NCBI RefSeq assembly: GCF_000007985.2
Contig: NC_002939.5
Span: 1,410,001-1,442,000 of the forward strand
DNA from: Geobacter sulfurreducens PCA
GTDB lineage: Bacteria > Desulfobacterota > Desulfuromonadia > Geobacterales > Geobacteraceae
Length of the DNA stretch: 32,000 nucleotides
Reading direction: 5' to 3'
This document shows, in pieces, positions 768 to 18,060 of the stretch. The number at the start of each line of letters is the position of its first letter. Position 1 is the stretch's first letter. The translations under genes were made by a program, and so were the position numbers. Below the pieces are notes generated by a model, which was given only the letters and a program-made list of their open reading frames with translations, searched no databases and was not told the origin of the DNA.

Positions 768-832
768 TCAGGTAATTCGCCGGTTGTTGTCAGGATAATC
801 CTGATAGTGCACCAGGCTGTGTATACCGATTC
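768..832 (+). promoter_or_regulatory. Putative MCP promoter: 7-1-7 palindrome TCAGGATAATCCTGA plus CCGATT -10-like box
   Basis: Palindrome at 790-804, with a degenerate copy TCAGGTAATTCGC at 768-780 (22 nt upstream). ACCGATTC at 825-832, so CCGAT begins 36 nt after the palindrome start. It lies about 95 nt upstream of the ATG at 928. Confidence 0.45.
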
Positions 833-927: not shown

Positions 928-3816
928 ATGCTACAGAACATGCGGATCGGTTTGCGGTTGGGGCTCGGGTTCGGATTAGTGGTTGTGTTGATGGTGATCC
1001 TCGGCGGCATCTCCATCAATAGAATGGCTACCCTGAACACAGACCTTGACATGGTTGTCAAGGATCGCTGGCCCAAAGCGGAGACAACCTTCGGAATCAG
1101 TAGCCAGATCAACGTGGTGGCGCGGGCATTGCGCAACGCAATCCTTCTGGATGATCCAGCAGAGGTTCAGAAGGAGATTGCGCGAATCAACGAAGCTTCG
1201 GTGAGCGTCAGCAAGTCGATGGATGAACTGTCCAAGAGCATCACCAGCGAGGAGGGGAAGGCCAAACTGAAGGCGGTGGAGGCCTCCCGCGCCGCATACC
1301 GGGAGGATCTGCTGAAGCTGGTTGAGTATATCAGGGCCGGCAACAAGTCTGCTGCCCAGAAGATGCTCTTCGGCAGCTACCGCGAAAGGCAGCGAAGCTA
1401 CTTCGATGCCGTTGACGGGTTGACACAGTATCAGGCCAAGCTCCTGGCGGTATCCGGCAAGGAGGCTGAGCAGACCTTCGTTTCCTCCAGAAACATCATC
1501 GTAGCGCTTCTCGTGCTGTCGGCCCTTCTCGCATGTGCCTGCGCCTGGCTCGTGACCCGCTCCATCACCAGACCCATCGGCGCCTGCATGGCCGCTGCGG
1601 GCAGGATCGCCTCCGGCGACACCGACGTGACCCTGGACGTGACGGCGCGTGACGAAACCGGCCTGCTGCAGGTTGAGATGCAGAAGATGGTGGAAGCAAT
1701 CAGGGCGCTGATTGCGGACGCCGACATGCTCTCGCGGGCCGCGGTCGAGGGGCGTCTCGCGACCCGGGCCGATGCGGCTAAGCACCAGGGCGATTTCCGC
1801 AAGATCGTCTCCGGCGTCAACGATACCCTTGATGCGGTCATCACCCCACTCAATGTGGCCGCCGACTACGTGGATCGCATCTCCAGGGGCGACATTCCGC
1901 CCCGGATTACCGATACCTACAACGGAGATTTCAATGAGGTGAAAAACAACCTCAACCGGTGTATCGACGCGCTCAACGGCCTGCTGAGCGACATGAACGA
2001 GATGTCGAAAATGCACGATCTGGGCGACATCGACGTGGTTATGCCCGCTGACAATTACCAGGGCGCTTACCGGATCATGGCCAAGGGCGTGAACGACATG
2101 GTGAACGGTCACATCAGCGTCAAGAAAAAAGCGATGGCCTGCGTGGCCGAGTTCGGCAAAGGGAATTTCGACGCCGAACTGGAAAAGTTTCCCGGCAAAA
2201 AGGCTTTTATCAACGACACGATCGAGGCAGTACGGAGCAATATCAAGAACTTCATCGCCGACATGGGACACATGTCCCAACAGCACGACCTGGGTGACAT
2301 CGACGTTAAAATGCCGGAAGACCAGTACCAGGGGGCCTTCCAGGTCATGGCCAAGGGTGTGAACAACATGGTGGGCGGTCACATCAGCGTCAAGAAGAAG
2401 GCGATGGCCTGCGTGGCCGAGTTCGGCAAAGGGAACTTCAATGCCGACCTCGAAAAGTTCCCCGGCAAAAAGGCATTTATCAACGAGACGATCGAGGGCG
2501 TACGGACCAATCTCAAGTCCTTCGAAGAGCAACTGGGAATCCTGATCACGGCCGCTGCCGACGGCCAACTGGACAAGCGAGCCAACGCGGACCTCTTCGT
2601 GGGAGGCTGGAACCAGCTTGCCCGGGGTGTCAACGATACCATCACCAATATCGTCGAACCGCTGATGGTTACCGCCGATTACGTGGACCGGATCAGCAAG
2701 GGCGATATGCCGCCCCTTATCACCAAGGAATACCGGGGCCAGTACAACATCATCAAACAGAACCTGAATACGCTCATCGATGCCACCAACGGCATCGTTG
2801 CGGCCGCGAAAGAGGTTGCCGGCGGCAACCTGATGGTGGAGCTCAGGGAGCGCTCGGCCAAGGATGAGTTGATGCAGGCCCTTTCCGCAATGGTAAAGAA
2901 GCTCTCCGAGGTCGTGGCCGAGGTGAAGAGCGCCGCCAACAACGTGGCCGCGGGAAGTCGCGAAATGAGTTCCGGCTCCGAGCAGATGAGCCAGGGGGCC
3001 ACCGAGCAGGCGGCTGCCGCGGAAGAGGCGTCGTCAAGCATGGAGGAAATGTCTTCCAATATCAGGCAGAATGCCGATAACGCCTCCCAGACGGAGCGGA
3101 TCGCCATCAAGAGCGCCCAGGACGCCCGCGACGGCGGCAAGGCGGTGGCCGAAACCGTCACCGCCATGAAGGATATCGCCTCGAAGATATCGATCATCGA
3201 GGAGATTGCTCGCCAGACGAATCTCCTGGCACTGAACGCGGCCATCGAGGCGGCCCGCGCCGGCGAGCACGGCAAGGGATTCGCGGTGGTGGCGGCCGAG
3301 GTCAGAAAGCTTGCCGAGCGGAGCCAGAAGGCTGCCGGCGAGATCAGTGACCTGTCGGCCTCCAGCGTGGAGGTGGCGGAGAAGGCCGGCGAGATGCTGG
3401 GTCGAATCGTGCCCGACATTCAGAAAACCGCGGAACTGGTCCAGGAGATCAGTGCAGCCAGCAAGGAACAGGACACAGGCGCCGAGCAGATCAACCGGGC
3501 CATCCAGCAACTGGACCAGGTGATCCAGCAGAATGCCAGCGCAGCCGAAGAAATGGCATCCACGGCAGAAGAACTGTCTGCCCAATCGGAACAGCTCCAG
3601 TCGATCATTTCCTTCTTCCGGGTCGATAGCTCGGCGCAGTCCTCCAGTGCGATTGCGGCTGCAAAGCCTGCGGCGAAAAAGCCGGCCCTTGCCCACGCGC
3701 CGGCCAACGGGTACCACAAGGCAAATCAGGCTCCGGCCAAGAAGGTGGCACATGCAGGACTCAACCTCAATCTTGAAGGGGGAGATCACCTGGATTCCGA
3801 GTTCGAAACGTTCTAG
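928..3816 (+). CDS. Methyl-accepting chemotaxis protein (long, multi-HAMP-like, internally repeated)
   Basis: GGAGG at 916-920, then ATG 928 ([29 protein letters not shown] helix). The track start at 874 is an upstream extension. A second TM lies near residue 200, followed by a long cytoplasmic insert of repeated modules. Canonical MCP hairpin [42 protein letters not shown]. Ends in EFETF. Confidence 0.93.
2002..2541 (+). repeat. In-frame tandem duplication, 2 x 270 bp (2 x 90 aa), inside the MCP
   Basis: Unit 1 (2002-2271) is [75 protein letters not shown]. Unit 2 (2272-2541) is [75 protein letters not shown]. Long runs are identical at the nucleotide level. Confidence 0.9.
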
Positions 3817-3932: not shown

Positions 3933-4018
3933 GCCATTGATGTTGCAGGTCGGGTTTCTGGGGTTCGGCATTACCCTCTGCTTTGCAGAGGCATTCCCAC
4001 TGTCAGGAGTAGTTTTTG

Positions 4019-4738
4019 ATGTATCGTCGTATCCTTGCCTTGCTGATGGTCCTGGCGGCATTCATCGGGAACGTCCACGGCGCAACGCTTGAACTGAGCA
4101 CGTCCGATGCTCCCCCCTACTCGACCCCGGACGGCAGCGGGCTCGCCGACCGGATTGTCCTGGAGGCATTCCGGCGGACCGGGGTGACGGTTAAAATTGT
4201 GGCAGCTCCCTCGGAGCGCTCACTGGTCAATGCGAATCTGGGGATCGTGGACGGCGAATATCTCCGCATTTCCGGGATCGAGAAAATGTATCCCAATCTG
4301 GTTATGGTTCCGGAATCCATCTGTGAGAATGAGTTCACAGCCTTTGCCAGAGACCCGGCTATCAAGCTCAAGGGGTGGGAGAGCCTTGGCCCCTATTCGG
4401 TGGGTTTCATTACCGGTTGGAAGCTTCTTGAGGAAAACGTCGCAAAGGTCAAGTCTCTGACCAAGGTGAAGGATGACGAGGCGTTGTTCGACCTGCTCGC
4501 CAATGGCAGGATTGACATCGCCATCTTCGACCGGCGCAGGGGAGAGGCGTACCTCAAACATAGCCGGGAACGGGGAGTGCGTCCGCTTACTCCACCCCTT
4601 GCCCGGCGCACCATGTATCTCTATCTCAACAGAAAGCACGCGGCACTCGTCCCGATCCTGGCCGGCGCTCTCAGCCAGATGAAGCGGGACGGGTCGATCA
4701 GGCGGATCATGATTTCGGCCCTCGGAACCGCAGACTGA
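4019..4738 (+). CDS. Periplasmic solute-binding protein (family-3 / PBPb-like)
   Basis: AGGAG at 4005-4009, then ATG 4019 (a TTG at 4016 is an alternative start). Signal peptide MYRRILALLMVLAAFIGNVHG. The stop lies 4 nt before the kinase ATG at 4743, which suggests an operon and translational coupling. Confidence 0.8.
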   Translation: MYRRILALLMVLAAFIGNVHGATLELSTSDAPPYSTPDGSGLADRIVLEAFRRTGVTVKIVAAPSERSLVNANLGIVDGEYLRISGIEKMYPNLVMVPESICENEFTAFARDPAIKLKGWESLGPYSVGFITGWKLLEENVAKVKSLTKVKDDEALFDLLANGRIDIAIFDRRRGEAYLKHSRERGVRPLTPPLARRTMYLYLNRKHAALVPILAGALSQMKRDGSIRRIMISALGTAD

Positions 4739-4742
4739 CTCG

Positions 4743-6923
4743 ATGTCGACAGCAACTCTTCCACATACTGTCGGTAAACGATTGTTCCGCCAGACCCTTC
4801 TGCTGGCCCTGGCCCTCAGTGTCGTGTTTTCGGCTGTTTTCACGGTCGTCGAATACTACCGCAGTAAGGTTTCCCTTAACGAGTCCGTTGAGCTTCTGAA
4901 AAAGACCCACCTGGATGCCATAACCGCCGCTCTCTGGAGCCTCGACCGCCAACAGATCGCGGCCCAGATCGACGGAATACACCACTATCCTTTCATCAGC
5001 TACGTGGCCGTGGTCGATCAGGGCGGGGTCGTCGTAGAATCCGGCACCAGAAGCGAACTGTTCGGCGATGTCCGCAGAATAGATCTCACTGCGACCTACA
5101 ACGGACGTCAGGTGTCCCTGGGGTCCCTCTACCTGGAGATCGACCGCCAGGCCATCATGCGCGATGCCCTGTCCACCGCGGCCGTAACCCTGCTGTTCCA
5201 GACCCTGACCATTACCATCGTGATGCTGTTCACCTTCATGCTTTTCGAGCGCCAGGTAACCCGCCATCTGGCTGCTGCTGCGGACTACTTCACCTCCTTC
5301 GGTTTCGCCCGGGTGCAGCAGCCGCTCCAGTTGGACAAGCACCGGTACGGGGACGAGATCGACGCGCTGGTGGAGGCGTTCAACAGGATGCGGGAATCCC
5401 TGGCCGTTGCCTATCAGCAGCAGCAGGGGATGCTCCAGGCGGTGCGCGAGAGCGAGGCGTTGCTGCGGGCAATTGCCCGCAGGATACCGAACGGCGGAGT
5501 GTGGGTGGTGGACACTGATGGTCGCTATATTATGTTCGAGGGGAGCCTCGTTGAGTCCCTCGGCCTGAGCGGTCAGGAGGCGTTGGGGCGCATGCCGGGC
5601 GACCTGTTCGGAGAGCCGCTTGCCGACCGGCTGGTGGGCTGTTATCGCCTGGCGCTTGCCGGGGGAACCCTGAGCGAGGAAATCGAGTACCGGGAACGGG
5701 TGCTGTGGATCCAGTTCGCCCCTCTTGAGGACGAACACGGCGCAGTGATGGCCGCCGTGGCCCTCGGTATTGATGTGACCGAACGGCGCCAAGCCGAGGC
5801 GGAGCGGCGGGAGATGCTGCAGCGGCTGGGCCAGGCCCACAAGATGGAGGCAGTTGGCCGGCTTGCCGGGGGTATCGCCCACGACTACAACAACAAGCTC
5901 ACGGTGATTCTCGGCTACGCCCACGTGCTCAAGCTCACCGGCTTCCAGAGCAAGGAGGCCCCCGAACAGCTCGATCAGATCATCAGGGCGGCTGAGCATT
6001 CCCGCGACATCACCCGCCAACTGCTGGCGTTTACCCGTAGTGAGCGGGTTAATCCCGTCAGGGTCGATCTGAACCGGCTCATCTCCCAGAGCAGCAAATC
6101 CCTGACCCGTCTGATCGGAGAGGACATAACCCTCAGCCATGTGGCCGGCGCAGATCTGTGGCCGGTGCGGATCGATCCGACCCAGGCCGATCAACTCCTC
6201 ATGAACCTGGTGATGAACGCCCGCGACGCCATAGCGGGCACCGGCAGTGTCACCATCGCGACCTCGAATGTCGTGCTTGACAGGGCAACGGTCAGGCATC
6301 TGCAAGGCGCGTCGCCTGGAGAATACGTTCTGATGACGGTAAGTGATACGGGTTGCGGCATGGACCCCGAGGTGATGGAACATATCTTCGAGCCATTTTA
6401 CACGACTAAGGAAATGGGAAAAGGAACCGGCCTCGGACTCGCCACGGTTTACGGGATTGTGCGTCAGAACGGCGGTGCCATCAGCGTTGAGAGCGAGCCC
6501 GGCGGGGGATCGGTCTTTTCCATCTATTTGCCGCGCTTTGTGGGTGAGTCGCACGATGTTCGCCGGCTCGGCGAGGTCGACGAAACTCTCCCCGCCAGGA
6601 CCACGCTTCTGGTGGATGACGACGACGCCGTGCGGGATATCACCGCACTGATGTTGCGGCGGCTCGGTCATACCGTCATAACCGCATCCGATCCCGACGA
6701 GGCAATCCACCTCTGTCAGCAGCCCGGCATAGTCGTCGATTTGATCCTCACCGATGTCATCATGCCGTCCATGAACGGCCGGGAGATGGTCCGGTCTATC
6801 CTGTCCCACCAGAAAGCGGCCAAAGTTCTCTATATGTCCGGCTACCCGGCGGACGTCGTAGAAGGGCGAGGCGCGGTCGACGCCGATGCGCGTCTCCTTA
6901 GCAGGCTGTTGAAATTGAAATAG
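4743..6923 (+). CDS. Hybrid sensor histidine kinase (2-TM sensor, PAS, HisKA, HATPase, REC); 3' end displaced by an IS insertion
   Basis: H-box GGIAHDYNNKLTVI. N and G boxes NLVMNARDA, DTGCGM, GTGLGLA. Receiver motifs LLVDDDDAVRD and DLILTDVIMPSMNG. The native sequence ends at 6901 and the frame then runs into the IS left end (SRLLKLK, stop at 6921-6923). Confidence 0.9.
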   Translation: MSTATLPHTVGKRLFRQTLLLALALSVVFSAVFTVVEYYRSKVSLNESVELLKKTHLDAITAALWSLDRQQIAAQIDGIHHYPFISYVAVVDQGGVVVESGTRSELFGDVRRIDLTATYNGRQVSLGSLYLEIDRQAIMRDALSTAAVTLLFQTLTITIVMLFTFMLFERQVTRHLAAAADYFTSFGFARVQQPLQLDKHRYGDEIDALVEAFNRMRESLAVAYQQQQGMLQAVRESEALLRAIARRIPNGGVWVVDTDGRYIMFEGSLVESLGLSGQEALGRMPGDLFGEPLADRLVGCYRLALAGGTLSEEIEYRERVLWIQFAPLEDEHGAVMAAVALGIDVTERRQAEAERREMLQRLGQAHKMEAVGRLAGGIAHDYNNKLTVILGYAHVLKLTGFQSKEAPEQLDQIIRAAEHSRDITRQLLAFTRSERVNPVRVDLNRLISQSSKSLTRLIGEDITLSHVAGADLWPVRIDPTQADQLLMNLVMNARDAIAGTGSVTIATSNVVLDRATVRHLQGASPGEYVLMTVSDTGCGMDPEVMEHIFEPFYTTKEMGKGTGLGLATVYGIVRQNGGAISVESEPGGGSVFSIYLPRFVGESHDVRRLGEVDETLPARTTLLVDDDDAVRDITALMLRRLGHTVITASDPDEAIHLCQQPGIVVDLILTDVIMPSMNGREMVRSILSHQKAAKVLYMSGYPADVVEGRGAVDADARLLSRLLKLK
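6898..6914. repeat. Target-site duplication TTAG (6898-6901) plus IS left inverted repeat CAGGCTGTTGAAA (6902-6914)
   Basis: The reverse complement of 8208-8220 is identical to 6902-6914 (13/13). TTAG recurs at 8221-8224. Confidence 0.85.
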
Positions 6924-8220
6924 AGAAAACAGCCTATTTGTGGTACATTGTCGCGCATAACGCTCTACAATTATTGAGGAAAGTTATGCGCGGCTTTGAC
7001 AGCAACACAGAAGCTCTCTTTACCTATGTGACACCTGAATCCTTTGTCCCGAAGGACCACCCCTTGCGGGCCATCCGTAAAATGGCCGACGAAGCCCTGG
7101 CAGGGATGGACAAGCTCTTTGACAGCATGTACGCCACAACCGGCCGCTCCTCAATCCCACCGGAGAAGCTCTTGAAAGCCCAACTGCTGATGATCCTCTA
7201 CTCCATCCGCAGCAACCGGCAGTTGGTAGAGCAGATCCATTACAACTTCCTGTTCCGCTGGTTCCTCGGCATGGGCTTGGACGAGAAAGTCTGGGATCAT
7301 TCCAGCTTTACCAAGAACAGTGACCGATTGATTGGCTCCGAAGTTGCCGCCGAGTTTCTTTCCCGGGTTCTGGCCCAGGCAGAGCGTAAGCGACTGTTGT
7401 CCCGCGAACACTTCACCGTTGACGGAACTCTCATCGAAGCCTGGGCTTCCATCAAGAGCTTCAAGCCCAAGGATGGACCTCCTTCAGCCGGTGGTGGCGG
7501 CAGAAACGATACCGTGGATTTCAAGGGACAGAAACTTACCAACGAAACCCATGGTTCCACCACTGACCCTGATGCCCGGCTCTACCGCAAGGGGAAGAAC
7601 AAGGAAGCCAAGCTCTGCTACCAGGGACATACCCTGATGGAGAATCGTAGTGGCCTCATCATCAGGACCAAGGTGACAACGGCAACCGGTTGCGGTGAGC
7701 GCGACGCAGCAAAGGCCATGGTGCAGCAATTGCCAAGGACGACCCGACGGATCACTCTTGGCTGCGACAAAGGCTACGACACAGAATCATTCGTCAAAGA
7801 GCTGCGTAGGCTAAAGATAACGCCACACGTGGCCCAGAACACCTCCAACAGGAAATCGGCCATCGACGGCAGAACCACCAAGCATCCGAACTACACCATC
7901 AGCCAGAAGATCAGGAAACGAATCGAAGAAGGCTTTGGCTGGATGAAGACCGTGGGCAGCTTACGCAAGACGATGTACCGGGGAATCGAGAAGATCGCCA
8001 TGCAACTTGATCTGCACGCTGCGGCCTACAACCTGGTTCGGATGAAAAACCTGGGTCTCGGTGTCACCTGAGAGGGGAAAACCAGGCTACATCAGCAGTA
8101 TATGAGGTTGATAAAGAGCAAAAAGAACGAGAAACAAAGGTTCTGAGCAACAAAACTGATTCAAAAAAAAACGAACTGCAAAGTTCAGCAAGTCAAATGG
8201 GGCCGATTTTCAACAGCCTG
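6902..8220 (+). mobile_element. IS5-family insertion sequence, 1319 bp, apparently intact
   Basis: 13-bp perfect terminal inverted repeats, a 4-bp direct repeat TTAG (fits the IS5 YTAR target) and a single DDE transposase ORF. GC content is visibly lower than in the flanks. Confidence 0.88.
6986..8071 (+). CDS. IS5-family DDE transposase
   Basis: GAGG at 6976-6979, then ATG 6986 (MRGFDSNTEALF...). The track start at 6938 is non-ATG. InsH/DUF772-type N-terminus (NFLFRWFLGMGLDEKVWDHSSFTKN). DDE_Tnp_1-type C-terminus with CDKGYD and R-x3-E-x6-K (RKRIEEGFGWMK). Confidence 0.9.
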   Translation: MRGFDSNTEALFTYVTPESFVPKDHPLRAIRKMADEALAGMDKLFDSMYATTGRSSIPPEKLLKAQLLMILYSIRSNRQLVEQIHYNFLFRWFLGMGLDEKVWDHSSFTKNSDRLIGSEVAAEFLSRVLAQAERKRLLSREHFTVDGTLIEAWASIKSFKPKDGPPSAGGGGRNDTVDFKGQKLTNETHGSTTDPDARLYRKGKNKEAKLCYQGHTLMENRSGLIIRTKVTTATGCGERDAAKAMVQQLPRTTRRITLGCDKGYDTESFVKELRRLKITPHVAQNTSNRKSAIDGRTTKHPNYTISQKIRKRIEEGFGWMKTVGSLRKTMYRGIEKIAMQLDLHAAAYNLVRMKNLGLGVT

Positions 8221-8288: not shown

Positions 8289-8441
8289 CAGCCTTTCCTC
8301 TCACATAATCCCCCATTCATATCTGCGGTCCTCATTACTGAGCCTCTTCATCTTCCGCGCCCCTCTCGTCATGCTTACCATTTATCTGGTGTAGATAAAA
8401 AGACCGTAATGAACCGATGTAGGGAATTGGGAGGCAGGTTG

Positions 8442-8483
8442 TCAGGGATTTCCCTATATTCCTGTAAACGGTTTTCCCGATAG
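8442..8483 (+). promoter_or_regulatory. Putative MCP promoter: TCAGGGATTTCCCTA element plus CCCGATAG -10-like box
   Basis: Element at 8442-8456. CCGATA at 8477-8482, exactly 35 nt after the element start. Half-site AGGGAATT at 8421-8428. It lies 62 nt upstream of the ATG at 8545. Confidence 0.5.
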
Positions 8484-8544
8484 GTATACACAGAGCAGGC
8501 AAAGTTCATGTGCTGATAAGTTACGCCAAGCAAAGGAGGATAAT

Positions 8545-10251
8545 ATGACGTGGTTCCACAATTTAAAAATTGCATCTAAGCTGATAGTTGGTTTTGCTCT
8601 TGTTACCCTGATAGCTTGTGTTATAGGAGCTATTGGGATAACAAAAATAATGCAGATAGAAAAAGCCGATACAGAGATGTATGAGCTAAATGCAAAGCCA
8701 ATGGGACCTATCCTGACTACAGCTGTGGCTTTTCAGAGGATCAGGGTCAACTATCGTGAGATAGCACTGGAACAGACTAATGAAGGCAAGGTAAAGTTTT
8801 CCAACAGAATTAAAGAGTTGCAAAAGACAATAGATGACAATTTGCCCGAAATAGAAAAGTCTCTGAAGTCGGAAGAGACTAAGAAAGCCTACGCAGATAT
8901 AAAGGCAGAGTTGGCTAAGTTTGCCCCTCATCTTGACAAGATTGTGGCCCTGGCCATGGATGGGAAGAATGACCAGGCAGTGGCCTATATGAGGAGTGAC
9001 TCCGTGGCCGGGATCGCCCGGTCCGTGGACGACTCGATTCAGAAACTCGCTGACCTGAAAATTGATCTGGCCAAGAAGAAATCCGACGCCAATACCGCCG
9101 CCGCCAAGGCTGCGGTGGCGATGACGGGCATCATCCTCGTGCTCGGTGTTGCCCTGGCGGTCGGACTCGGCATATTCCTTTCCCGCATCATCAGCCGCCC
9201 GCTCAGATCGGCCGTGGACGTTTCGAACCGCCTGTCGGAAGGAGACCTGACCGTAACGATCGAAGCGACGAGCAAGGACGAGACGGGTCAGCTGCTTGCG
9301 GCGATGCACAACATGGTAGAGAAGCTGAAGGGCGTGGTAGCTGACGTGAAGAGCGCGGCAGACAACGTTGCCGCTGGCAGCCAGGAGCTCTCCTCCAGCT
9401 CCGAGGAGATGAGCCAGGGAGCCACCGAGCAGGCGGCCGCGGCCGAAGAGGCCTCCAGCTCCATGGAGCAGATGAGCTCCAACATCCGGCAGAACGCTGA
9501 CAACGCCACCCAGACCGAGAAGATCGCCCTGAAGAGCGCCGCCGATGCCAAGCAGGGCGGCACGGCCGTGGCAGAAACCGTCGTGGCCATGAAGGAAATC
9601 GCCTCCAAGATCTCGATCATCGAAGAGATAGCCCGCCAGACGAACCTGCTGGCGTTGAACGCAGCCATCGAAGCGGCGCGTGCCGGTGAGCACGGCAAAG
9701 GGTTCGCGGTGGTAGCGGCCGAGGTCAGAAAGCTTGCCGAGCGGAGCCAGAAGGCGGCGGGCGAGATCAGCGAGCTGTCTGCCTCCAGCGTTCAGGTAGC
9801 GGAAGAAGCCGGCGAGATGCTGACGCGGATCGTGCCGGACATCCAGCGTACCGCGGAATTGGTGCAGGAGATCAGCGCCGCGTGCAAGGAGCAGGACACG
9901 GGAGCGGAGCAGATCAACAAAGCTATCCAGCAGCTTGACCAGGTGATCCAGCAGAACGCCAGCGCCAGCGAAGAGATGGCGTCCACCAGCGAAGAGCTGG
10001 CCAGCCAGGCCGAACAGCTGCAGGAAACAATCGCCTTCTTCAAAACCGGCGAACAGGTGGGTTTGGTGCGCAAAGCGGCAGCAGTGCGCCAGTTCGCGGC
10101 CAAGAAAAAGGCAGCGATCCCTCATCTGGGTCACGGCACGTCCAACGGCTACCACGCCGAACCCGCGACGTCGCGGAAAGTGGCGGTGGGCGGCGGGGTA
10201 GACCTGAACCTGGACAGCGATCACCTTGACGACCAGTTCGAGAAATTCTAG
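8545..10251 (+). CDS. Methyl-accepting chemotaxis protein (4-helix-bundle-type periplasmic sensor)
   Basis: AAGGAGGA at 8533-8540, then ATG 8545. Layout is TM, about 170 aa of helical periplasmic region, TM, HAMP and the MCP signalling domain. C-terminal QFEKF. Confidence 0.95.
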
Positions 10252-10728
10252 GAGGGAGCGATGGCACACGCAGACACAACGGAAACGCGGCAGTACCTGA
10301 CCTTCACTCTTGCCGGGGAAGTCTTTGGGGTGGACGTGGCCAAGGTCCGTGAGATATTGGAATGGAGCAGCATCACCAAGGTCCCGCAGACTCCCGAATT
10401 CATGCGCGGTGTGATCAACCTGCGGGGGAGCGTGGTTCCGGTGATCGACTTGCGGCAGAAATTCGGGATGCCTGAAACGGAGCGCAGCATCAACACGTGC
10501 ATCATCGTGGTTGAGGTAGAGACGGGAGCTGAGACACTGGTGCTGGGGATGCTTGCGGACTCAGTGCAGGAGGTGTTCGAGCTGGAGGGAGTGAACATCG
10601 AGCCTGCGCCCCGGATCGGGACGAAGTTGGACACCTCGTTCCTGAAGGGAATGGGGAAGCGCGGCGATGCCTTTCTGATGATCCTGGACATCGACCGGGT
10701 ATTCGGCGGCGATGATCTGGCCGGGCTG
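9245..10728 (+). repeat. Segmental duplication copy 1 (MCP 3' half + cheW)
   Basis: Near-identical to 11866-13343. The offset is 2621 and becomes 2615 after a 6-nt indel in a divergent linker (about 10021-10090). Confidence 0.92.
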
Positions 10729-10755
10729 GCCGCGGCAGGGGAGCGGGCAGCGTAG
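10261..10755 (+). CDS. cheW: Chemotaxis coupling protein CheW
   Basis: GGAGGGAG RBS overlaps the MCP stop. 164 aa with CheW-like sequence (YLTFTLAGEVFGVDVAKVREI, INLRGSVVPVIDLRQKFG, VLGMLADSV). Confidence 0.95.
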   Translation: MAHADTTETRQYLTFTLAGEVFGVDVAKVREILEWSSITKVPQTPEFMRGVINLRGSVVPVIDLRQKFGMPETERSINTCIIVVEVETGAETLVLGMLADSVQEVFELEGVNIEPAPRIGTKLDTSFLKGMGKRGDAFLMILDIDRVFGGDDLAGLAAAGERAA

Positions 10756-10783
10756 AAACAGAGAAAGACAAGGGCACTGCCCA

Positions 10784-10818
10784 ACGGCGCTCCGAACGAA
10801 CGGGGCGCCGTTTTTTTT
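10784..10818 (+). terminator. Rho-independent terminator after cheW
   Basis: Stem ACGGCGCTCCG (10784-10794) / CGGGGCGCCGT (10801-10811) with one G-U pair, followed by T8. Confidence 0.85.
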
Positions 10819-10943
10819 AAATAGCTGTCTGAGCGTTGTTCAGTCGGTTGATGGCTGATGGCCTTACAAGCTGCTTGTTAAACTATATCGTCAGTGGGTG
10901 AGGGGGTAATAATTAAGTCTGTAAGGGTATACGACTTGAGGTG

Positions 10944-10985
10944 TCAGGGATTTCCTGATGTGCCGGGTAGTGGTGATCCCGATAG
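10944..10985 (+). promoter_or_regulatory. Putative MCP promoter: TCAGGGATTTCCTGA palindrome plus CCCGATAG -10-like box
   Basis: Palindrome at 10944-10958 (7-1-7 with one mismatched pair). CCGATA at 10979-10984, exactly 35 nt after the palindrome start. This would leave a 5' UTR of about 185 nt before the ATG at 11175. Confidence 0.5.
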
Positions 10986-11174
10986 ATATAATGGTGGTAA
11001 AAAATAGGCGGCAAATTTTATGGTGGTTAAAGCCGGGGTCGGTTGGGCAGGCACTACGTGTGACGAATAGAATGGTTATTGGAAAATGGTCTGACAACGG
11101 TATATATCAAATCGTTTTCAGGTCGACAGCGGTAGAAGTGCAATATGTTGCTTCACTTATCCAAGGAGGATGGT

Positions 11175-12866
11175 ATGCGTATCGGTGATCTCAAAATTGG
11201 CGTACGGCTTGGTATTGGATTTGGTGTTTTGCTCGTCCTACTGGGTGTCGTTACCGTGGTCGGCATCAATGGTATGAAGGAGATTAACTCAAAGCTGGAT
11301 CGCATTCTCAAGGTCAACTATGGGAAGATCAAGAATGCCAATGAAGTCTCTATGGTCGTTGGCGATTTGATGGGCAAGATCAATGAAATAATGCTCAAGG
11401 ACGTGAATGAGCGGCCTGCAATCAAACAGGAAATTGAAAAATTGCGGAGCGATTACCGCTCTGCCCTGGAGAGGCTTGAACAACTGGAGCAGACGGATCA
11501 GGGCAAACAATTGATCGCCGGTGCCAAATCCGCTATTGATAATGCCAAAAAGGCCAATAACGACATCATCGAGCTGAGTCTTGCCGGGAAAACCGATCAG
11601 GCTCTGATAGTTTACAACAAGGAAGGCGCCCCCCTATCGCAAAAGATCGTGACGGCATTCAAGAATATCGTGAAGTATCAGGAAGAGCGGATGGAGCTGC
11701 GCTACGCTGAAGCGCTGAAAGCCTACGGCACCTCCCGGGCCGTTGCACTCGGTGTTGCTTTCTGCGCAGCGATCATCGGCATTCTTATCAGCCTGTTTGC
11801 GACCAGGAGCATTACGCGTCCCCTCGACAAAGCCGTATCGGTATCCAATGAACTGGCAGAGGGGAACCTGACCGTAACGATCGAAGCGACGAGCAAGGAC
11901 GAGACGGGTCAGCTGCTTGCGGCGATGCACAACATGGTAGAGAAGCTGAAGGGCGTGGTAGCTGACGTGAAGAGCGCGGCGGACAACGTTGCCGCCGGCA
12001 GCCAGGAGCTCTCCTCCAGCTCCGAGGAGATGAGCCAGGGAGCCACCGAGCAGGCGGCCGCGGCCGAAGAGGCCTCCAGCTCCATGGAGCAGATGAGCTC
12101 CAACATCCGGCAGAACGCTGACAACGCCACCCAGACCGAGAAGATCGCCCTGAAGAGCGCCACGGATGCCCGCGAGGGTGGCAAGGCTGTTGCCGGCACG
12201 GTGAGTGCCATGAAGGAAATCGCCTCCAAGATCTCGATCATCGAGGAGATAGCCCGTCAGACGAACCTGCTGGCGTTGAACGCAGCCATCGAAGCGGCGC
12301 GTGCCGGTGAGCACGGCAAAGGGTTCGCGGTGGTAGCGGCCGAGGTCAGAAAGCTTGCCGAACGGAGCCAGAAGGCAGCGGGCGAGATCAGCGAGCTGTC
12401 TGCCTCCAGCGTTCAGGTAGCGGAAGAAGCCGGCGAGATGCTGACGCGAATCGTGCCGGACATCCAGCGTACCGCGGAACTGGTGCAGGAGATCAGCGCC
12501 GCGTGCAAGGAGCAGGACACGGGAGCGGAGCAGATCAACAAAGCTATCCAGCAGCTTGACCAGGTGATCCAGCAGAACGCCAGCGCCAGCGAAGAGATGG
12601 CGTCCACCAGCGAAGAGCTGGCCAGTCAGGCCGAACAGCTGCAGGCCACCATTTCATTCTTCCGGACCGATGATCGTGGCGCGTCAAGCCGGAGCGCGGT
12701 CCATCGTCCCGTTGCCAAGAAAAAGGCAGCGATCCCTCATCTGGGTCACGGCACGTCCAACGGCTACCACGCCGAACCCGCGACGTCGCGGAAAGTGGCG
12801 GTGGGCGGCGGGGTAAACCTGAACCTGGACAGCGATCACCTTGACGACCAGTTCGAGAAATTCTAG
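11175..12866 (+). CDS. Methyl-accepting chemotaxis protein (4-helix-bundle-type sensor)
   Basis: AGGAGGA at 11164-11170, then ATG 11175 ([25 protein letters not shown]). The track start at 11145 is an upstream extension. TM, helical periplasmic region, TM, HAMP and MCP signalling domain. C-terminal QFEKF. Confidence 0.94.
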
Positions 12867-13343
12867 GAGGGAGCGATGGCACACGCAGACGCAACGGAAA
12901 CGCGGCAGTACCTGACCTTCACTCTTGCCGGGGAAGTCTTTGGGGTGGACGTGGCCAAGGTCCGTGAGATATTGGAATGGAGCAGCATCACCAAGGTCCC
13001 GCAGACTCCCGAATTCATGCGCGGTGTGATCAACCTGCGGGGGAGCGTGGTTCCGGTGATCGACTTGCGGCAGAAATTCGGGATGCCTGAAACGGAGCGC
13101 AGCATCAACACGTGCATCATCGTGGTTGAGGTAGAGACGGGAGCTGAGACACTGGTGCTGGGGATGCTTGCGGACTCAGTGCAGGAGGTGTTCGAGCTGG
13201 AGGGAGTGAACATCGAGCCTGCGCCCCGGATCGGGACGAAGTTGGACACCTCGTTCCTGAAGGGAATGGGGAAGCGCGGCGATGCCTTTCTGATGATCCT
13301 GGACATCGACCGGGTCTTCGGCGGTGATGACTTGGCCGGGCTG
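11866..13343 (+). repeat. Segmental duplication copy 2 (MCP 3' half + cheW)
   Basis: Partner of 9245-10728. The first ~440 nt of the two cheW copies differ at a single base (10276 A versus 12891 G, by hand alignment). Confidence 0.92.
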
Positions 13344-13370
13344 ACGACATTGGAGCAGACGGCGGCATAG
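12876..13370 (+). CDS. cheW: Chemotaxis coupling protein CheW (second copy)
   Basis: Same RBS and spacing as copy 1. The protein is identical to copy 1 except T5A and the last ~8 residues. Confidence 0.95.
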   Translation: MAHADATETRQYLTFTLAGEVFGVDVAKVREILEWSSITKVPQTPEFMRGVINLRGSVVPVIDLRQKFGMPETERSINTCIIVVEVETGAETLVLGMLADSVQEVFELEGVNIEPAPRIGTKLDTSFLKGMGKRGDAFLMILDIDRVFGGDDLAGLTTLEQTAA

Positions 13371-13402: not shown

Positions 13403-13430
13403 GCGCCCCGGTTGTTCGGGGCGCTTTTTT
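13403..13430 (+). terminator. Rho-independent terminator after the second cheW
   Basis: Stem GCGCCCCG (13403-13410) / CGGGGCGC (13417-13424), followed by T6. Confidence 0.85.
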
Positions 13431-13544: not shown

Positions 13545-13586
13545 TCGGGAAATTCCCGGTAAAGAACGTTCCATTTTTACCGATAT
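13545..13586 (+). promoter_or_regulatory. Sigma-28 (FliA/SigD)-type promoter preceded by the palindrome TCGGGAAATTCCCGG
   Basis: TAAA (13560-13563), N15, ACCGATAT (13579-13586), against the consensus TAAA-N15-GCCGATAT/AA. The palindrome at 13545-13559 abuts the -35, and CCGATA begins 35 nt after the palindrome start. Confidence 0.6.
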
Positions 13587-13685
13587 TATTAAATACATCC
13601 CTTCGGAAACACCGCTCTCATTTCCGGCTTGTATGGTGTTCAATGGGGGTATCTCAGGGTTCAGGTGAAAGAGAAACGTATCGAG

Positions 13686-16193
13686 ATGACCCCCAAGAAG
13701 CATGCCCAATCGCTCAAAAACAGACTTCTGAGGATAAACCTGCTGCTGCTTTGTGTGGCATCCCTTGCGATTGTCCTGGTAGTCAATGTGGCCCAGAAAC
13801 AGCTTGCACTCATTGATGCCGGCAGGGATGCCGAACGAATCCTTGCGCGCTACCTTGCTATCCATACGTACTTCAATCAGCAGCTCAAGCCACGACTTCT
13901 CGCTCTGACGAAACCGCTACGCGACAAGGAGTACTTCGATCCGGCCTGGATGTCCTCTACCTATGCGGTCCGGGAGATCGACAAGATATTTCAGACCCGA
14001 CACGGCAAGGGGTATTACTATAAGGAGTGCGCCATCAACGCCCGGAGTCCCCTGAACGAGGCCGACTCCTTCGAGCGTGCGTTCCTGGAGCGGGCCGGCC
14101 GTGACGCGGCGGTGACCTCGTTCAATGGCGTGCGGAAGATCGACGGCAAACCGTTTTTCGTTTCCATGGTCCGGGGTGAAACCATGGAAAAGCCGTGCCT
14201 GCTCTGCCATAGCAGCCCGGAGAAGGCCCCCGCCGGACTTGTCCACAACTATGGAGCCGAGCGGAGTTTTGGCCGTCACGAACATGAGCTTGTGTCGGCT
14301 GTCTCAATCCGCATCCCCCTGGCTTCGACCTATGCCGAGGCCAACAGCTTTTCCCTTAAGCTGTCGGCGCTGCTCTTCGGTATCATTGCCGCTCTTTTCG
14401 CCGTCCAGAACCGGATTTTCGAGCGTCTCGTCCTGAAACCCCTGGCCGTTGTCACCGAGGGGGCCCGTCGGATTGCCCACGACCGCCGCTATCTCGGAGA
14501 GCAGCTTCCCCTCGATCACGGCCGCGAAATGAACGAACTCGCCGCATCATTCAATGTGATGTCGACCGAGCTCCATACCTTCATCCACAATCTGGAGGAA
14601 AAGGTCGAGGAAAAGACCGCAGAGCTGATCCTGGCGCGCAAGGATGCCGAAGAGGCGAGCCGCGCTAAGAGTGATTTCCTGGCAACCATGAGCCATGAGA
14701 TCCGCACTCCCATGAATGCCATCATCGGCATCAACCAGCTCCTGGTCGACACTCCGCTTACTCAGGAGCAACGCCGCCTGTTGGATGACTCGACCACTGC
14801 CGCCGAGTCGTTGCTGATCATCATCAACGATATCCTTGACTTGTCGCGGGTGGAGGCCCGGCGCCTGGAGCTGTTTCCAGAGGCGGTCGAGCTGCGCTCC
14901 TTTGTCGAATCGCTCCGGCGCCTGTTCGCCGTGCAGGCAACGCGCAAGCAGATCAGCCTCAGTGTCAGCGTGGGCGAGGGGACGCCCCGGTTCGTCTGGT
15001 GCGATCCGGCTCGCCTCCGTCAGATACTGACCAATCTTCTGTCCAATGCCCTCAAGTTTACGCCGACGGGCGGCGTGGTCACCATGGTCGCAGACCAGGC
15101 TCCCGCCGGTGCCGGACTGGTCTTCACCGTCAGCGATACCGGCATCGGGATCGATAAGGCCAAGCAGGAGAGTATCTTCGAGATGTTCCGCCAGGCTGAT
15201 TCCTCGACTACTCGCATCTACGGCGGAACCGGCCTCGGTCTCGCCATTACGAAGGGGCTCGTGGAATTGATGGGAGGAACGATCGCCGTGGAGAGCGAAC
15301 CGGGCAGTGGCGCCACGTTCAGCGTGTGTCTCCCCCTGGAGCCGGCTGATGGCCCGCAGTTCCACGACTGCGCCGCCGAAAACCAGGAGCAGGACAGGGA
15401 GCTGCCGTCCCTTGAGGTTCTCCTGGTTGAGGACAATGATTTGAACCGGACCGTGGCCGTCGGGCTCCTCACGGCCCTCAACCAGCGGGTGACCGCCGTC
15501 ACCAACGGCCGGGAGGCCATCGACGTCCTCCGTGACCGGGATTTCGAACTGGTGTTCATGGATATTTCGATGCCCGAAATGGACGGCATCGAGGCCACCT
15601 GGGCGATTCGCCGGGGAGAGGCCGGTGAGCGGGCGCGGTCGACGCCCATCGTCTTCCTCACGGCCCATGCTCTGGCGGCCGACCGTGAGCGGTGCCTGGA
15701 AGCGGACGTGACCGGCTATCTTACCAAACCTCTGCTGCGGGAAGAGCTTCGCAGGATGATCCTTTTATGTGCCGAGGGTGAGCAGATGCATCCGCCCGTC
15801 GGAACGACTCCACCGTCAGGCGATCCTGCGCGCTTCTTCCCGTTCGATCTGGAGTTTCAGCGGAGACAGTTCACCGAAGCCGGTCTTGACCACGCAGTGG
15901 AAGAACTCTTGTCCACGTTTGCCCAGTCAGCGTTCAAACTGTGCGACCGGATCGACGAATGCCTCGCTGCCGGCGACTATGCCGGCGCCGCCGCTGCTGC
16001 TCACACCCTCAAGGGAGCTGCGGCAACGGTAGGGGCACCTCTCGTTGCCAGCTGCGCCGCCAAGGTGGAGGCGGCGGTACGGTCGAGCGACGGTGCCGCT
16101 GCCTCCCGCCGTCTCAGCCGATTGAGAGGAGAAGTCACCCGTGCGCAGGCCGCGATTATCCCCGCGTCCGATCACGCGCGCTCGTGGCATTGA
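13686..16193 (+). CDS. Hybrid histidine kinase with a heme-c-type (DUF3365/Tll0287-like, CXXCH) periplasmic sensor, HAMP, HisKA, HATPase, REC and HPt
   Basis: ATG 13686 (MTPKKHAQ...) is preferred; TTG 13629 and GTG 13665 are alternatives. CLLCH at 14196-14210 lies between two TM segments. H-box [13 protein letters not shown], then [18 protein letters not shown]. Receiver [11 protein letters not shown]...[10 protein letters not shown]...TKP. HPt motif [13 protein letters not shown]. Confidence 0.88.
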
Positions 16194-16296: not shown

Positions 16297-16315
16297 TATC
16301 AGGAAATTCCTGATA
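16297..16315. promoter_or_regulatory. Perfect 19-bp palindrome TATCAGGAAATTCCTGATA (best copy of the MCP-upstream element)
   Basis: 9-1-9 perfect inverted repeat, 104 nt after the kinase stop and 235 nt before the MCP ATG at 16550. There is no CCGATA box at +35. Confidence 0.4.
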
Positions 16316-18034: not shown

Positions 18035-18060
18035 GAAATTCCCCTGATAGGTGAGGTGAT

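Follow-up and report, generated by a model that had tools for sequence, protein, structure and literature searches.

GerE-family dimers such as NarL, NreC and BvgA bind heptamer inverted repeats and have secondary sites about two helical turns off, towards the -35; the NreC site is reported to have the form TAGGG-N4-CCCTA. We know of no coupling to sigma-28 for any of the three. Sigma-28 regulons are usually controlled through the availability of the sigma factor (the FlgM checkpoint), and their promoters are very stringent. In Escherichia coli, the sigma-28 consensus reads TAAAGTTT-N11-GCCGATAA, with the CGA triplet occupying -11..-9 and the -35 octamer -32..-25, and one mutation in the -35 suffices to cripple such a promoter (PMC2859248). 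Factor-dependent activation is rare at sigma-28 and other alternative-sigma promoters; at E. coli aer, a chemoreceptor gene with an activator-dependent sigma-28 promoter, CRP binds at -49.5 and the essential -35 is retained (PMC2859248).

Two further systems deserve description. FixJ, of the FixLJ system of Sinorhizobium meliloti (fixK/nifA), is a response regulator with a LuxR/GerE-type HTH which activates when phosphorylated and works with sigma-70 RNA polymerase. Its operator, TAAGTAATTTCCCTTA, comprises 16 bp in which TAAG...CTTA arms flank an A/T-rich centre with imperfect dyad symmetry; the two adjacent footprints run roughly from -69 to -44 and from -57 to -31, so that a distal site is paired with a promoter-proximal one reaching the -35 region (PMC4999443). 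SsrB of Salmonella SPI-2, whose ortholog is EsrB, recognizes 18-bp sites of 7-4-7 layout at sigma-70 promoters, partly by H-NS counter-silencing, with no fixed register to the -10; its heptamer ACmTTA corresponds to TAAkGT on the opposite strand, and its palindromes are degenerate, one strong half-site being enough (PMC2837388).

The window analysed here is a stretch of 32,000 nt from Geobacter sulfurreducens PCA, whose relevant features are collected in Table 1. A preliminary description had pointed to four composites, each consisting of a palindrome followed at 35, 35, 35 and 36 nt by a CCGAT(A/T) box, and all four were located precisely at the coordinates and distances given. On the other hand, its 16-nt consensus had to be abandoned: the palindrome is a 15-nt element of 5-5-5 layout, TCAGG-N5-CCTGA (in broader form, T[C/A]AGG-N5-CCT[G/T]A), and since the 16-nt search skipped perfect 15-nt sites, the 5-5-5 pattern was used instead. 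Palindrome 3 carries an A->G / T->C variant that is symmetric, its dyad being perfect, and it is devoid of the distal half-site. As for the other three, the upstream half-sites proposed at 768 and 8420/8421 turned out to be real and were joined by a third one, and a distal T[CA]AGG half-site at -22/-23 accompanies 9/10 composites. A short inverted repeat, often with auxiliary half-sites about two helical turns off, is the form expected of a GerE-type operator.

Table 1. Features of the window relevant to the composites (composites are numbered as their palindromes; +35 and similar values are distances in nt from palindrome start to box)
Feature	Positions	Strand	Details
NarL/FixJ-type response regulator, 3' 211 codons	1-634	+	Pfam Response_reg + GerE; frame open from base 2
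Distal half-site TCAGGTAATTCGCCG	768-782	+	starts 22 nt 5' of palindrome 4 start
Palindrome 4, TCAGGATAATCCTGA	790-804	.	perfect arms; CCGATT at 826 (+36)
Sigma-28-type -10 octamer ACCGATTC, composite 4	825-832	+	CCGATT at +36
Poly-HAMP MCP gene downstream of composite 4	928-3816	+	Pfam; gene call in L207
Distal half-site TAGGGAATTGGGAGG	8420-8434	+	starts 22 nt 5' of palindrome 1 start
Palindrome 1, TCAGGGATTTCCCTA	8442-8456	.	CCGATA at 8477 (+35)
-10 octamer CCCGATAG, composite 1	8476-8483	+	CCGATA at +35
Operon downstream of composite 1	8545-10755	+	4HB-MCP 8545-10251, CheW 10261-10755
Intrinsic terminator, end of first MCP-CheW operon	10783-10812	+	-23 kcal/mol
Distal half-site TAAGGGTATACGACT	10922-10936	+	new relative to the preliminary description; starts 22 nt 5' of palindrome 2 start
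Palindrome 2, TCAGGGATTTCCTGA	10944-10958	.	perfect arms; CCGATA at 10979 (+35)
-10 octamer CCCGATAG, composite 2	10978-10985	+	CCGATA at +35
Operon downstream of composite 2	11145-13370	+	second 4HB-MCP 11145-12866, CheW 12876-13370
Intrinsic terminator upstream of composite 3	13403-13424	+	
Palindrome 3, TCGGGAAATTCCCGG	13545-13559	.	CCGATA at 13580 (+35)
Full sigma-28-type promoter TAAAGAAC-N11-ACCGATAT	13560-13587	+	directly abuts palindrome 3
Hybrid histidine kinase gene downstream of composite 3	13686-16193	+	
Fifth palindrome, perfect, TCAGGAAATTCCTGA	16299-16313	.	251 nt 5' of Cache-type MCP, ATG 16550
Terminator before the 18166-18192 promoter	18061-18084		
Near-canonical sigma-28-type promoter TCAAGGTT-N11-ACCGATAC	18166-18192	+	CZB-type MCP, ATG 18271
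Degenerate palindrome CCGGGAAAACCCTGA	18234-18248	.	~+36..+50, leader of CZB-type MCP, 3' of promoter

The genes downstream of the sigma-28-type boxes encode MCPs, CheW and a sensor kinase, and each box of the window faces a gene located 56-154 nt downstream. The hybrid histidine kinase contains a Tll0287-like sensor, HisKA, HATPase, REC and Hpt domains, together with one CLLCH heme motif. Since the terminator at 10783-10812 closes the preceding MCP-CheW operon, composite 2 stands as an independent promoter. The MCP-CheW cassettes of composites 1 and 2 are 95% identical over their 3' 1.5 kb; 5' of this similar part, alignment is confined to an island of 49 nt that spans palindrome and -10 (8440-8488 vs 10942-10990, 75%), so the similarity is a footprint and not a fresh duplication. 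Alignment of the four regions revealed neither shared extended flanks nor terminal repeats, only the palindrome and the box being conserved, and an Rfam search gave zero matches. Palindrome 1 has an IS element 220 nt on its 5' side.

Two other identities of the palindrome were considered and discarded: (i) a dispersed repeat, MITE or REP element, given that flank similarity is absent and the cassettes share the 49-nt island only; and (ii) an intrinsic terminator or structured RNA, as the hairpins reach -5 to -9.5 kcal/mol and no T-tract follows, vs -23 for the 10783 terminator, and Rfam gave no match. Exact palindrome matches number only three in the window, all of them intergenic. The arms alone, with up to two mismatches, are found 36 times where 18.9 are expected; the composite pattern has 3 matches vs 0.05 expected, and 0/100 shuffles reach 3. 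Spacing was examined, for palindromes of at most one mismatch, over the window together with the loci of the regulator and of 80 MCP homologs, 457 kb in all: 8/13 of the CCGAT boxes that occur 0-100 nt downstream of a palindrome are at +35/+36 (binomial P ~3e-11 in this 457-kb set), and another is at +58.

According to the geometry of E. coli sigma-28 promoters, the palindrome would occupy approximately -47..-33, with its centre at about -40 and its last base one before the position of the -35 octamer; on these E. coli-derived coordinates, it abuts the octamer position without overlapping it. CCGAT(A/T), with the CGA core, occurs at each of the four window sites and in 9/10 related composites (L212 has CCGAAA), and the -10 octamer of composite 4 reads GCCGATTC in strain AP017912.1. 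The -35 is another matter, as 0-5 of the 8 positions of TAAAGTTT are matched in the composites. Within the window, the octamer position holds TATTCCTG in composite 1 (3/8), TGTGCCGG in composite 2 (1/8), a sequence with 0/8 matches in composite 4, and TAAAGAAC (5/8) in composite 3, the only one of the four with a sigma-28 -35, just as had been claimed. In total, 6/10 composites, including 1, 2 and 4, match at most 3/8, and, in the window, a -35 octamer 11 nt before the -10 octamer is found only at site 3 and in the 18166 promoter (whose -35, TCAAGGTT, matches 6/8). Thus, both elements of a canonical FliA promoter are present at N11 in two places of the window, while the other composites resemble such promoters in the CCGATA core with its CGA triplet and in their location upstream of mcp/che genes. 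A search for sigma-70 consensus promoters at the four composites found none at three of them; the exception is composite 2, near which a sigma-70-like -10 TATAAT (10988-10993) and TGGGCA-18-TAGAAT (11044-11073) count against a sigma-28 model.

Canonical promoters of the form TAAAG-N-[G/T]CGATA stand beside palindromes at site 3, L207:3139 (box at +57, i.e. 35+22), L042 and L049, and they occur without a palindrome in the same clade (L061:1291, L083, L052). The strict TAAA-N16-YCGATA pattern is oriented 7:0 with the genes in related loci. In any case, a canonical sigma-28 promoter precedes MCP homologs in 4/80 loci only, so MCPs are not generally under sigma-28 control across the order, and no enrichment besides the strand bias is claimed.

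Palindromes also exist outside the fixed register. The preliminary description had passed over the 16299 palindrome, the 18166 promoter with the 18234 palindrome, and the regulator gene at the left edge. The 16299 palindrome is identical in strains L001-L006 and lacks a CCGAT at +35, while the 18234 palindrome reads TCAGGAAAAGCCTGG in CP010430.1. In G. hydrogenophilus, palindromes are found (i) with TCGATA at +40/+41, out of register by half a helical turn (L042:3263, L049:1891); and (ii) 3' of the -10 (L042:1412, L061:3410). The coupling between palindrome and CCGATA is therefore frequent, not obligatory, and the palindrome, as far as its sequence distribution indicates, is a separate operator and not a part of the sigma-28 promoter.

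Related loci were retrieved through protein homology, not through the DNA motif. The composite recurs amid different flanking sequence in four other species or MAGs: at L208:6735 in Geotalea (+35, CCGATAA), at L210:6942 and L210:10891 in G. pickeringii (both +35), at L212:4751 (+35, CCGAAA) and at L030:1388 (+36). Other Geobacteraceae thus keep the fixed spacing in their promoters, orthologous as well as paralogous, and the conservation of the palindrome in orthologous promoters of related species (L208, L210, L212, L030), which had been put forward as a check, was indeed present. In L207, L208, L210 and L212, sites orthologous to palindrome 4 follow the regulator gene, and a half-site like 768-782 stands at an equal distance in L159, L208, L210, L212 and L030. 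Outside Geobacteraceae, none of the palindromes of the regulator loci L214-L217 has a CCGAT box at +35. A metagenome scan with TCAGGDWWWHCCTGA-N{10,40}-CCGATA returned 120 matches, mostly due to chance, with no spacing peak: the histogram is flat (5 at gap 20 and 5 at gap 21, mean ~3.9 per bin), which means that the composite is not an architecture of bacteria in general. Nonetheless, the scan yielded regulator-linked palindromes (L159, L113, L176, L177, L172), and the stop codon of a GerE-type regulator lies <100 nt upstream of the palindrome in 4/120 matches.

The regulator gene extends beyond the window start, and the portion inside the window is 100% identical to G. sulfurreducens protein P0001. 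In the genome, a PAS/HisKA_3 kinase gene lies just 5' of it, and every Geobacteraceae locus examined has a conserved MCP-STAS-CheY-CheA/W cluster immediately 5' of the regulator; in L212, CheA is directly followed by the regulator, the histidine kinase between them being absent. The closest solved DNA-binding domains are those of EsrB (7vim, E=3e-13) and SsrB (2jpc). The recognition helix, SVKTVESQRMQIMRKL, is closest to EsrB/SsrB and FixJ: by sequence similarity only, KTVE(S/T)QR is near-identical to KTVETHR of SsrB/EsrB and similar to RTVEVHR of FixJ. In NCBIfam, the regulator scores under all equivalog cut-offs (at best 197 bits vs 300 for MctR; 84 vs 255 for FixJ) and, in consequence, no named ortholog can be assigned. 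Another candidate regulator in the window, ORF 4016-4738, was dismissed, since no DNA-binding domain was found in it with Pfam or NCBIfam.

In 8/11 loci with a homolog of the regulator, the palindrome lies in the intergenic region directly past the regulator stop. These post-regulator intergenic regions contain 9 sites in 2.8 kb vs 0.20 expected, a ~45-fold enrichment (Poisson 1e-12, a value that overstates independence, as the regulator loci are phylogenetically related). The strict-match site right after the regulator is missing in 3/11 (L211, L213 and L217): sites lie nearby in L211 and L217, the latter having three of them 22 nt apart, and in L213 the intergenic region itself holds a less strict match. 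The link persists upstream of genes other than che, namely TerC (L213, looser match), REC-HK and PAS-HK, and the loci with regulator homolog and site devoid of che or mcp are L213 (TerC), L159 (REC-HK), L215, L216 and L217. The order regulator, then site, is also seen in L030 and L070, both retrieved via MCP homology, and further regulator-linked sites exist in L113, L176, L177 and L159. The regulator of the window or a close paralog is, on this comparative evidence, the most likely candidate for the protein that binds the palindrome.

How does this locus compare with the described systems? It shares with FixJ the class of regulator and the pairing of a distal with a promoter-proximal site, and the TAAG...CTTA arms can be compared with TAAGGGATTCCCTGA (L212) and TCAGGTATTCCCTTA (L210). 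Nevertheless, the operator here is of 15 bp instead of 16, the -10 is of sigma-28 type, and the regulator is not a FixJ ortholog; its kinase is PAS/HisKA_3, not FixL, and its putative targets are chemoreceptor genes, not fixK. The half-site of SsrB resembles TAAGG/TCAGG, and the sufficiency of one strong SsrB half-site may be likened to the distal half-sites found here, but the 7-4-7 layout and the free position relative to the -10 are different. From NarL, NreC and BvgA, the present operator differs in half-site spacing and sequences. CRP at aer has in common with these promoters the location 5' of a chemoreceptor gene, but here the candidate activator is of GerE type, the palindrome, centred near -40, borders directly on the -35 position, with the -35 itself missing.

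Considering together the observed architecture, its statistics, its conservation and its co-localization with the regulator gene, we favour, with a probability of roughly 0.6, the reading that the 15-bp repeat is the operator of a dimeric NarL/FixJ-type regulator, fused in Geobacteraceae to sigma-28 -10 boxes, which recruits sigma-28 polymerase. The operator would be held in fixed register to a FliA-type -10, with the centre of the full palindrome at about -40 from the predicted start site and the half-site, two helical turns upstream, at about -62, so that two phosphorylated regulator dimers could sit on one face of the helix. Recruitment of sigma-28 RNA polymerase by the phosphorylated regulator, in replacement of the -35 contact, is proposed because the -35 octamer is essentially absent at 3/4 window promoters. 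Two inputs would then be required to express the chemoreceptor genes and the heme kinase: active FliA and the signal sensed by this two-component (or che-like) pathway. The sign of regulation presumably depends on position: at 18234, where the palindrome follows a complete sigma-28 promoter, repression by this protein would be more likely. The suggestion of the preliminary description that a dimeric regulator at a class II-like position might offset a weak -35 thereby gains support from the spacing conservation, the 0-5/8 match of the -35 and the co-localization with the regulator. Against this model, CRP is unable to activate an E. coli sigma-28 promoter from -41.5 (PMC2859248). A more specific version, in which the che-like module steers chemoreceptor transcription via an SsrB/FixJ-like, class II-type sigma-28 activator that contacts region 4 from about -40 and replaces the -35, is tentative, and we consider it possible but rather doubtful.

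Other explanations must be weighed. The palindrome might be the operator of another dimeric regulator, the response-regulator gene being nearby merely by virtue of the che/MCP neighbourhood; after all, Geobacter genomes encode many regulators, several window palindromes are 8-18 kb away from the regulator gene, and a strict site is lacking after the regulator in the three loci mentioned. Yet the site accompanies regulator homologs into loci without che or mcp, the enrichment past the stop codon is strong, and the TAAG/TCAGG half-site resembles the targets of SsrB/FixJ-like recognition helices, so that this explanation appears unlikely, although it carries some weight. Somewhat less probable still is that the regulator does bind but the arrangement is repressive, or that CCGAT is not a -10 but a third degenerate half-site (CCTGATA vs CCCGATA). 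Indeed, the right arm with its flank, CCTGATAG, is one base off the box CCCGATAG at sites 1 and 2, CCGATA forms the right arm of a second palindrome in the metagenome loci L172 and L176, and the palindromes located 3' of the -10 (18234, L042:1412, L061:3410) resemble repressor positions. However, the regulator-linked arrays of L214-L217 lack CCGAT at +35, the variable base before CCGAT (C, A, G or T) is easier to reconcile with a sigma-28 box than with an arm, the offset of 24-25 nt departs from the 22-23 nt period of the array, and a full TAAAG-N11 -35 stands in register with the box at site 3 and L207:3139. A repressor, moreover, would be pointless where the promoter already has no -35.

The preliminary description had also contemplated an organism-specific extended sigma-28 promoter, the palindrome being read directly by Geobacter FliA/RNA polymerase. 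The strict 35-36 nt spacing in at least 8 promoters and the invariant T at position -32 agree with this idea, but sigma factors do not read dyad-symmetric sites, and the palindrome occurs without a box (16299), 3' of the box, at +40/+41, at +57 and beside regulator homologs in lineages where no CCGAT follows, whereas L061:1291, L083 and L052 show canonical promoters of the same clade without it; we have therefore set this proposal aside as very improbable. As regards readings without function (chance, a remnant of recent gene duplication, a dispersed repeat, a mobile element), the 95% identical 3' halves of the cassettes that hold sites 1 and 2 and the IS element near site 1 could be invoked. 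The probability is practically negligible, in view of the excess over shuffles, the retention of the 49-nt island between cassette flanks diverged beyond alignment, the recurrence in other species or MAGs and the absence of Rfam matches and of repeat-like flank similarity.

Literature searches for the motif and the GSU129x regulator (including GSU1292-1302 and Geobacter FliA start sites) gave nothing relevant, nor any prior description of what appears to be a regulator operator fused to sigma-28 promoters. Geobacter is relevant to metal reduction and bioelectrochemistry and has some 30 MCPs, whose regulation is, to our knowledge, almost wholly unknown. The operator family is present, without a sigma-28 box, beside homologous regulators in other anaerobe lineages, and hence the assignment of the motif reaches past Geobacter. 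For the genus itself, the model supplies a candidate regulator (GSU129x with its PAS/HisKA_3 kinase), a motif by which a regulon could be defined genome-wide and a possible transcriptional output for an uncharacterized che-like cluster. If the model is right, these promoters place a second, signal-specific gate over FliA for some chemoreceptor genes and a heme sensor kinase. In the more specific version with the che-like module, if true, they would form a class of activator-dependent sigma-28 promoters without a -35, the first of its kind, and would close a feedback loop by which chemosensory output rewires the chemoreceptor set.

Each of the four composites, in which a 15-nt inverted repeat, T[C/A]AGG-N5-CCT[G/T]A, precedes a sigma-28-type -10 core, CCGAT(A/T), was re-found exactly at the coordinates of the preliminary description (see table); the 16-nt consensus that had headed it is in fact an element of 15 nt (5-5-5). 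The composite pattern has three matches in the window against 0.05 expected, a number reached by none of 100 shuffles, and all three exact copies of TCAGG-N5-CCTGA in the window are intergenic. Composite 2, composite 3 and the 18166 promoter each have a strong intrinsic terminator upstream (at 10783, 13403 and 18061, respectively) and therefore belong to separate transcription units. Rfam gave no match at any point in the window, whose identity to DPAK01000010.1 is 100% and to CP010430.1 99.6-99.9%.

Features of the window and of comparison loci with the composite layout (L-numbers denote fetched loci; offsets are counted from the palindrome start)
Feature	Position	Sequence	Remark
NarL/LuxR-type response regulator	1-634		gene continues past left window edge
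Composite 4	790-804	TCAGGATAATCCTGA	CCGATT at 826 (+36)
Poly-HAMP MCP	928-3816
CHASE5 hybrid kinase			between poly-HAMP MCP and IS element
IS element	6902-8220		DUF772/DDE_Tnp_1 transposase 6938-8071
Composite 1	8442-8456	TCAGGGATTTCCCTA	CCGATA at 8477 (+35)
4HB-MCP + CheW operon	8545-10755
Third distal half-site	10922-10936		absent from preliminary description
Composite 2	10944-10958	TCAGGGATTTCCTGA	CCGATA at 10979 (+35)
4HB-MCP + CheW operon	11145-13370
Composite 3	13545-13559	TCGGGAAATTCCCGG	CCGATA at 13580 (+35)
Tll0287-like hybrid kinase	13686-16193		one CLLCH heme motif
Fifth palindrome, perfect	16299-16313	TCAGGAAATTCCTGA	upstream of Cache-type MCP; no CCGAT at +35; missed earlier
Cache-type MCP	16550-18034
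Near-canonical sigma-28 promoter	18166-18192	TCAAGGTT-N11-ACCGATAC	of CZB-type MCP; missed earlier
Degenerate palindrome	18234-18248		CZB-type MCP leader, downstream of 18166-18192 promoter; missed earlier
CZB-type MCP	18271-19971
Composite layout, Geotalea	L208:6735		+35 CCGATAA
Composite layout, G. pickeringii	L210:6942		distal full site at 6919
Composite layout, G. pickeringii	L210:10891
Composite layout, locus of 66%-identical regulator	L212:4751		+35 CCGAAA
Composite layout, uncultured Geobacter	L030:1388		+36

The MCP-CheW cassettes share 95% identity in their last 1.5 kb (window 9232-10728 vs 11853-13343; MCP signalling domain and CheW), and their sensor domains and 5' regions are too diverged for blastn alignment. 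Upstream of the shared 3' part, the sole alignable stretch is an island of 49 nt that runs from the palindrome through the -10 box (8440-8488 vs 10942-10990). Across all four composite regions, conservation is confined to the palindrome and CCGAT; a repeat element as the source of the shared sequence was rejected on this ground, and the pattern, judged from the alignments, is that of a footprint. As for the cassette 3' halves, their identity suggests gene conversion, or duplication followed by sensor swapping.

For comparison, 80 loci with a homolog of the 8545 MCP were fetched (one genome per species), together with further loci around response-regulator homologs; neither set was selected by DNA motif. 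The layout is conserved in related species and recurs in L208, L210, L212 and L030, in the order distal half-site, 22-23 nt, palindrome, 20-21 nt, CCGAT. In 457 kb, 8 of the 13 CCGAT that follow a palindrome (<=1 mismatch) by up to 100 nt stand at +35/+36 (binomial P 3e-11), and one stands at +58. T[CA]AGG occurs at -22/-23 in 9/10 composites, the exception being site 3, which has a proper -35. Upstream of a neighbouring che-cluster MCP in another G. sulfurreducens strain (L207:3139), a perfect palindrome is followed 57 nt on (35+22) by a canonical TAAAG-N-GTCGATA promoter, that is, in the distal register. Scanned for across metagenomes, the palindrome with a CCGATA 10-40 nt behind it gave 120 matches, whose spacings form a flat histogram; hence, the composite is not a general bacterial feature.

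In G. hydrogenophilus, the palindrome can lie (i) downstream of the -10 of canonical TTAAAGTTT-N11-GCCGAT and TCAAGTTT-N-CCGATA promoters (L042:1412, L061:3410); or (ii) 5-6 nt upstream of complete TAAAG...TCGATA promoters (L042:3263, L049:1891); canonical promoters at L061:1291 have no palindrome. By this comparison, the palindrome is an element separable from the sigma-28 promoter. The CCGAT box could be read instead as a third half-site of the regulator array, given that the right arm and the bases flanking it, CCTGATAG, are similar to the box, CCCGATAG. This reading is disfavoured: the base before CCGAT varies, the offset is 24-25 nt, and in non-Geobacter regulator loci CCGAT is absent at +35 though the palindrome is present. 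The box thus probably falls outside the regulator's own site array, and its fusion to the palindrome is specific to Geobacteraceae.

The response regulator at the left edge of the window, which matches a G. sulfurreducens protein at 100% identity, is the candidate binder of the palindrome, with a probability of about 0.7. In 8/11 regulator-homolog loci, a palindrome (<=1 mismatch) lies in the intergenic region right after the regulator stop codon; the count is 9 sites in 2,805 nt, where the MCP-loci background rate predicts 0.20 (Poisson 1e-12, an optimistic value because the loci are related). The link extends to loci without che genes (L213, L215, L216, L217) and to two MCP-selected loci (L030, L070). 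Three sites at 22-nt steps are found in L217, and in L213 an HK-RR pair is followed by two TerC genes, each with a looser related element upstream, CTAAGGTTTTTCGAAG-N-TAGGCAAAATCCCTGG, below the strict consensus. A GerE-type regulator stop codon precedes the palindrome by <100 nt in 4/120 metagenome matches. One locus from that scan, L159, has a 56%-identical regulator gene and then TCAGGTTTTTCGAAG-N7-TCAGGGATTTCCTGA-N21-CCGATAA, the layout of window site 4 with its distal half-site 22 nt upstream; the genes downstream encode REC and HK proteins, and no MCP. The L159 regulator homolog (6212-6214 region, minus strand) is interrupted by one in-frame stop near codon 33, which may be a sequencing error or mark a pseudogene; despite it, operator and box are intact downstream of the gene.

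Overall, the regulator is generic NarL/VraR-like and falls below all NCBIfam equivalog cut-offs. Its DNA-binding domain is nearest to EsrB/SsrB and FixJ (recognition helix SVKTVESQRMQIMRKL vs KTVETHR and RTVEVHR). In the fixK promoter, FixJ binds TAAGTAATTTCCCTTA and leaves two footprints, -69..-44 and -57..-31 (PMC4999443); SsrB recognizes the heptamer ACmTTA (other strand TAAkGT) in a degenerate palindrome of which a single good half-site suffices (PMC2837388). The composites are similar to both in their arms, T[C/A]AGG...CCT[G/T]A, and in their distal half-site/proximal dyad arrangement.

When E. coli sigma-28 geometry is applied (CGA triplet at -11..-9, -35 octamer at -32..-25, start 6 bp after the -10 octamer; PMC2859248), the palindrome spans ~-47..-33, centred at ~-40 and ending one base before the -35 octamer position, and the distal half-site is centred near -62. 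The octamer matches TAAAGTTT at 0/8 (site 4), 3/8 (site 1), 1/8 (site 2) and 5/8 (site 3), in agreement with the earlier remark that only the 13545 site has a proper -35. In E. coli, a single -35 substitution is enough to cripple the aer promoter (PMC2859248); where the -35 matches this badly, the need for an activator is to be expected. The phosphorylated regulator would bind the proximal dyad and the distal half-site on the same helix face and would recruit sigma-28 RNA polymerase to these -35-less promoters, making the MCP genes and the heme kinase dependent on both FliA and the pathway signal; at sites downstream of a complete sigma-28 promoter, it would more likely repress. What the sequences establish is the layout, its departure from chance, its recurrence in other species and its linkage with the regulator gene. 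Beyond that, sigma-28 dependence of the composites is quite likely and activation rather than repression is somewhat favoured. Two caveats apply to the model: the register is different in G. hydrogenophilus, and E. coli CRP cannot activate sigma-28 RNA polymerase from -41.5 (PMC2859248).

Near composite 2, a perfect TATAAT (10988-10993) lies 3 nt past the CCGATA box, and a sigma-70-like TGGGCA-18-TAGAAT is found further downstream (11044-11073); the 11145 MCP may have an additional sigma-70-type promoter. Overlapping the Cache-type MCP stop codon, just before the terminator at 18061-18084, is a half-palindrome (18032-18047, GAGAAATTCCCCTGATAG) whose right arm is perfect.

Strain differences touch several of these features. 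The IS element sits at the extreme 3' end of the CHASE5 kinase gene (726 aa in the window vs 740 aa in strains without it), ~220 nt upstream of an intact composite 1. In CP010430.1 (L001 8657-9900), an ISL3-family element directly after the composite 3 CCGATA box cuts the heme kinase gene off from its palindrome and promoter; the homology break, at window 13586/13593, resembles a duplication of 8 bp where the start site is predicted. Another IS lies within one 4HB-MCP of that genome. The CZB-type MCP leader palindrome has two alleles, CCGGGAAAACCCTGA (window 18234-18248) and TCAGGAAAAGCCTGG (L001:14549), with one perfect half-site apiece on opposite sides; the CZB-MCP alleles are only ~91% identical although the genomes are otherwise 99.6% identical.

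In a comparison of Geobacter che genes published in 2008, the sigma-28 sites reported were confined to fliC and a single che cluster, and no palindrome was described (PMC2577667); a literature search on these locus tags or the motif found nothing. The components are of known kinds (GerE-family operator, sigma-28 box, class II-like placement); their fixed fusion without a -35 element appears undescribed.

Just upstream of the window, in G. sulfurreducens AP017912.1, a gap of 256 nt separates the PAS/HisKA_3 kinase gene from the regulator gene; within it, a CCGATA box (9777-9782, within L207:9757-9783) has a poor -35 and no palindrome, and the regulator gene itself may be under sigma-28-type control. 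In Geotalea AP027151.1 (L208:1-4756), the che cluster has given way to genes for phage tail-fibre, DUF4376 and DNA methyltransferase proteins, which precede a shortened HisKA_3 kinase of 308 aa; a prophage or island appears to have inserted beside the regulator locus. As a rule, STAS proteins act as anti-sigma-factor antagonists, and a STAS gene beside sigma-28-type promoters is intriguing. In all Geobacteraceae loci, the regulator follows a che-like cluster of MCP, STAS-domain protein, CheY and CheA-CheW fusion (L207:3272-7977; L209, L210, L211, L212), usually with a PAS/HisKA_3 kinase in between; in L212, CheA is followed directly by the regulator. This synteny, together with the L212 arrangement, raises the possibility of a che-like pathway with a transcriptional output that would remodel the receptor set.
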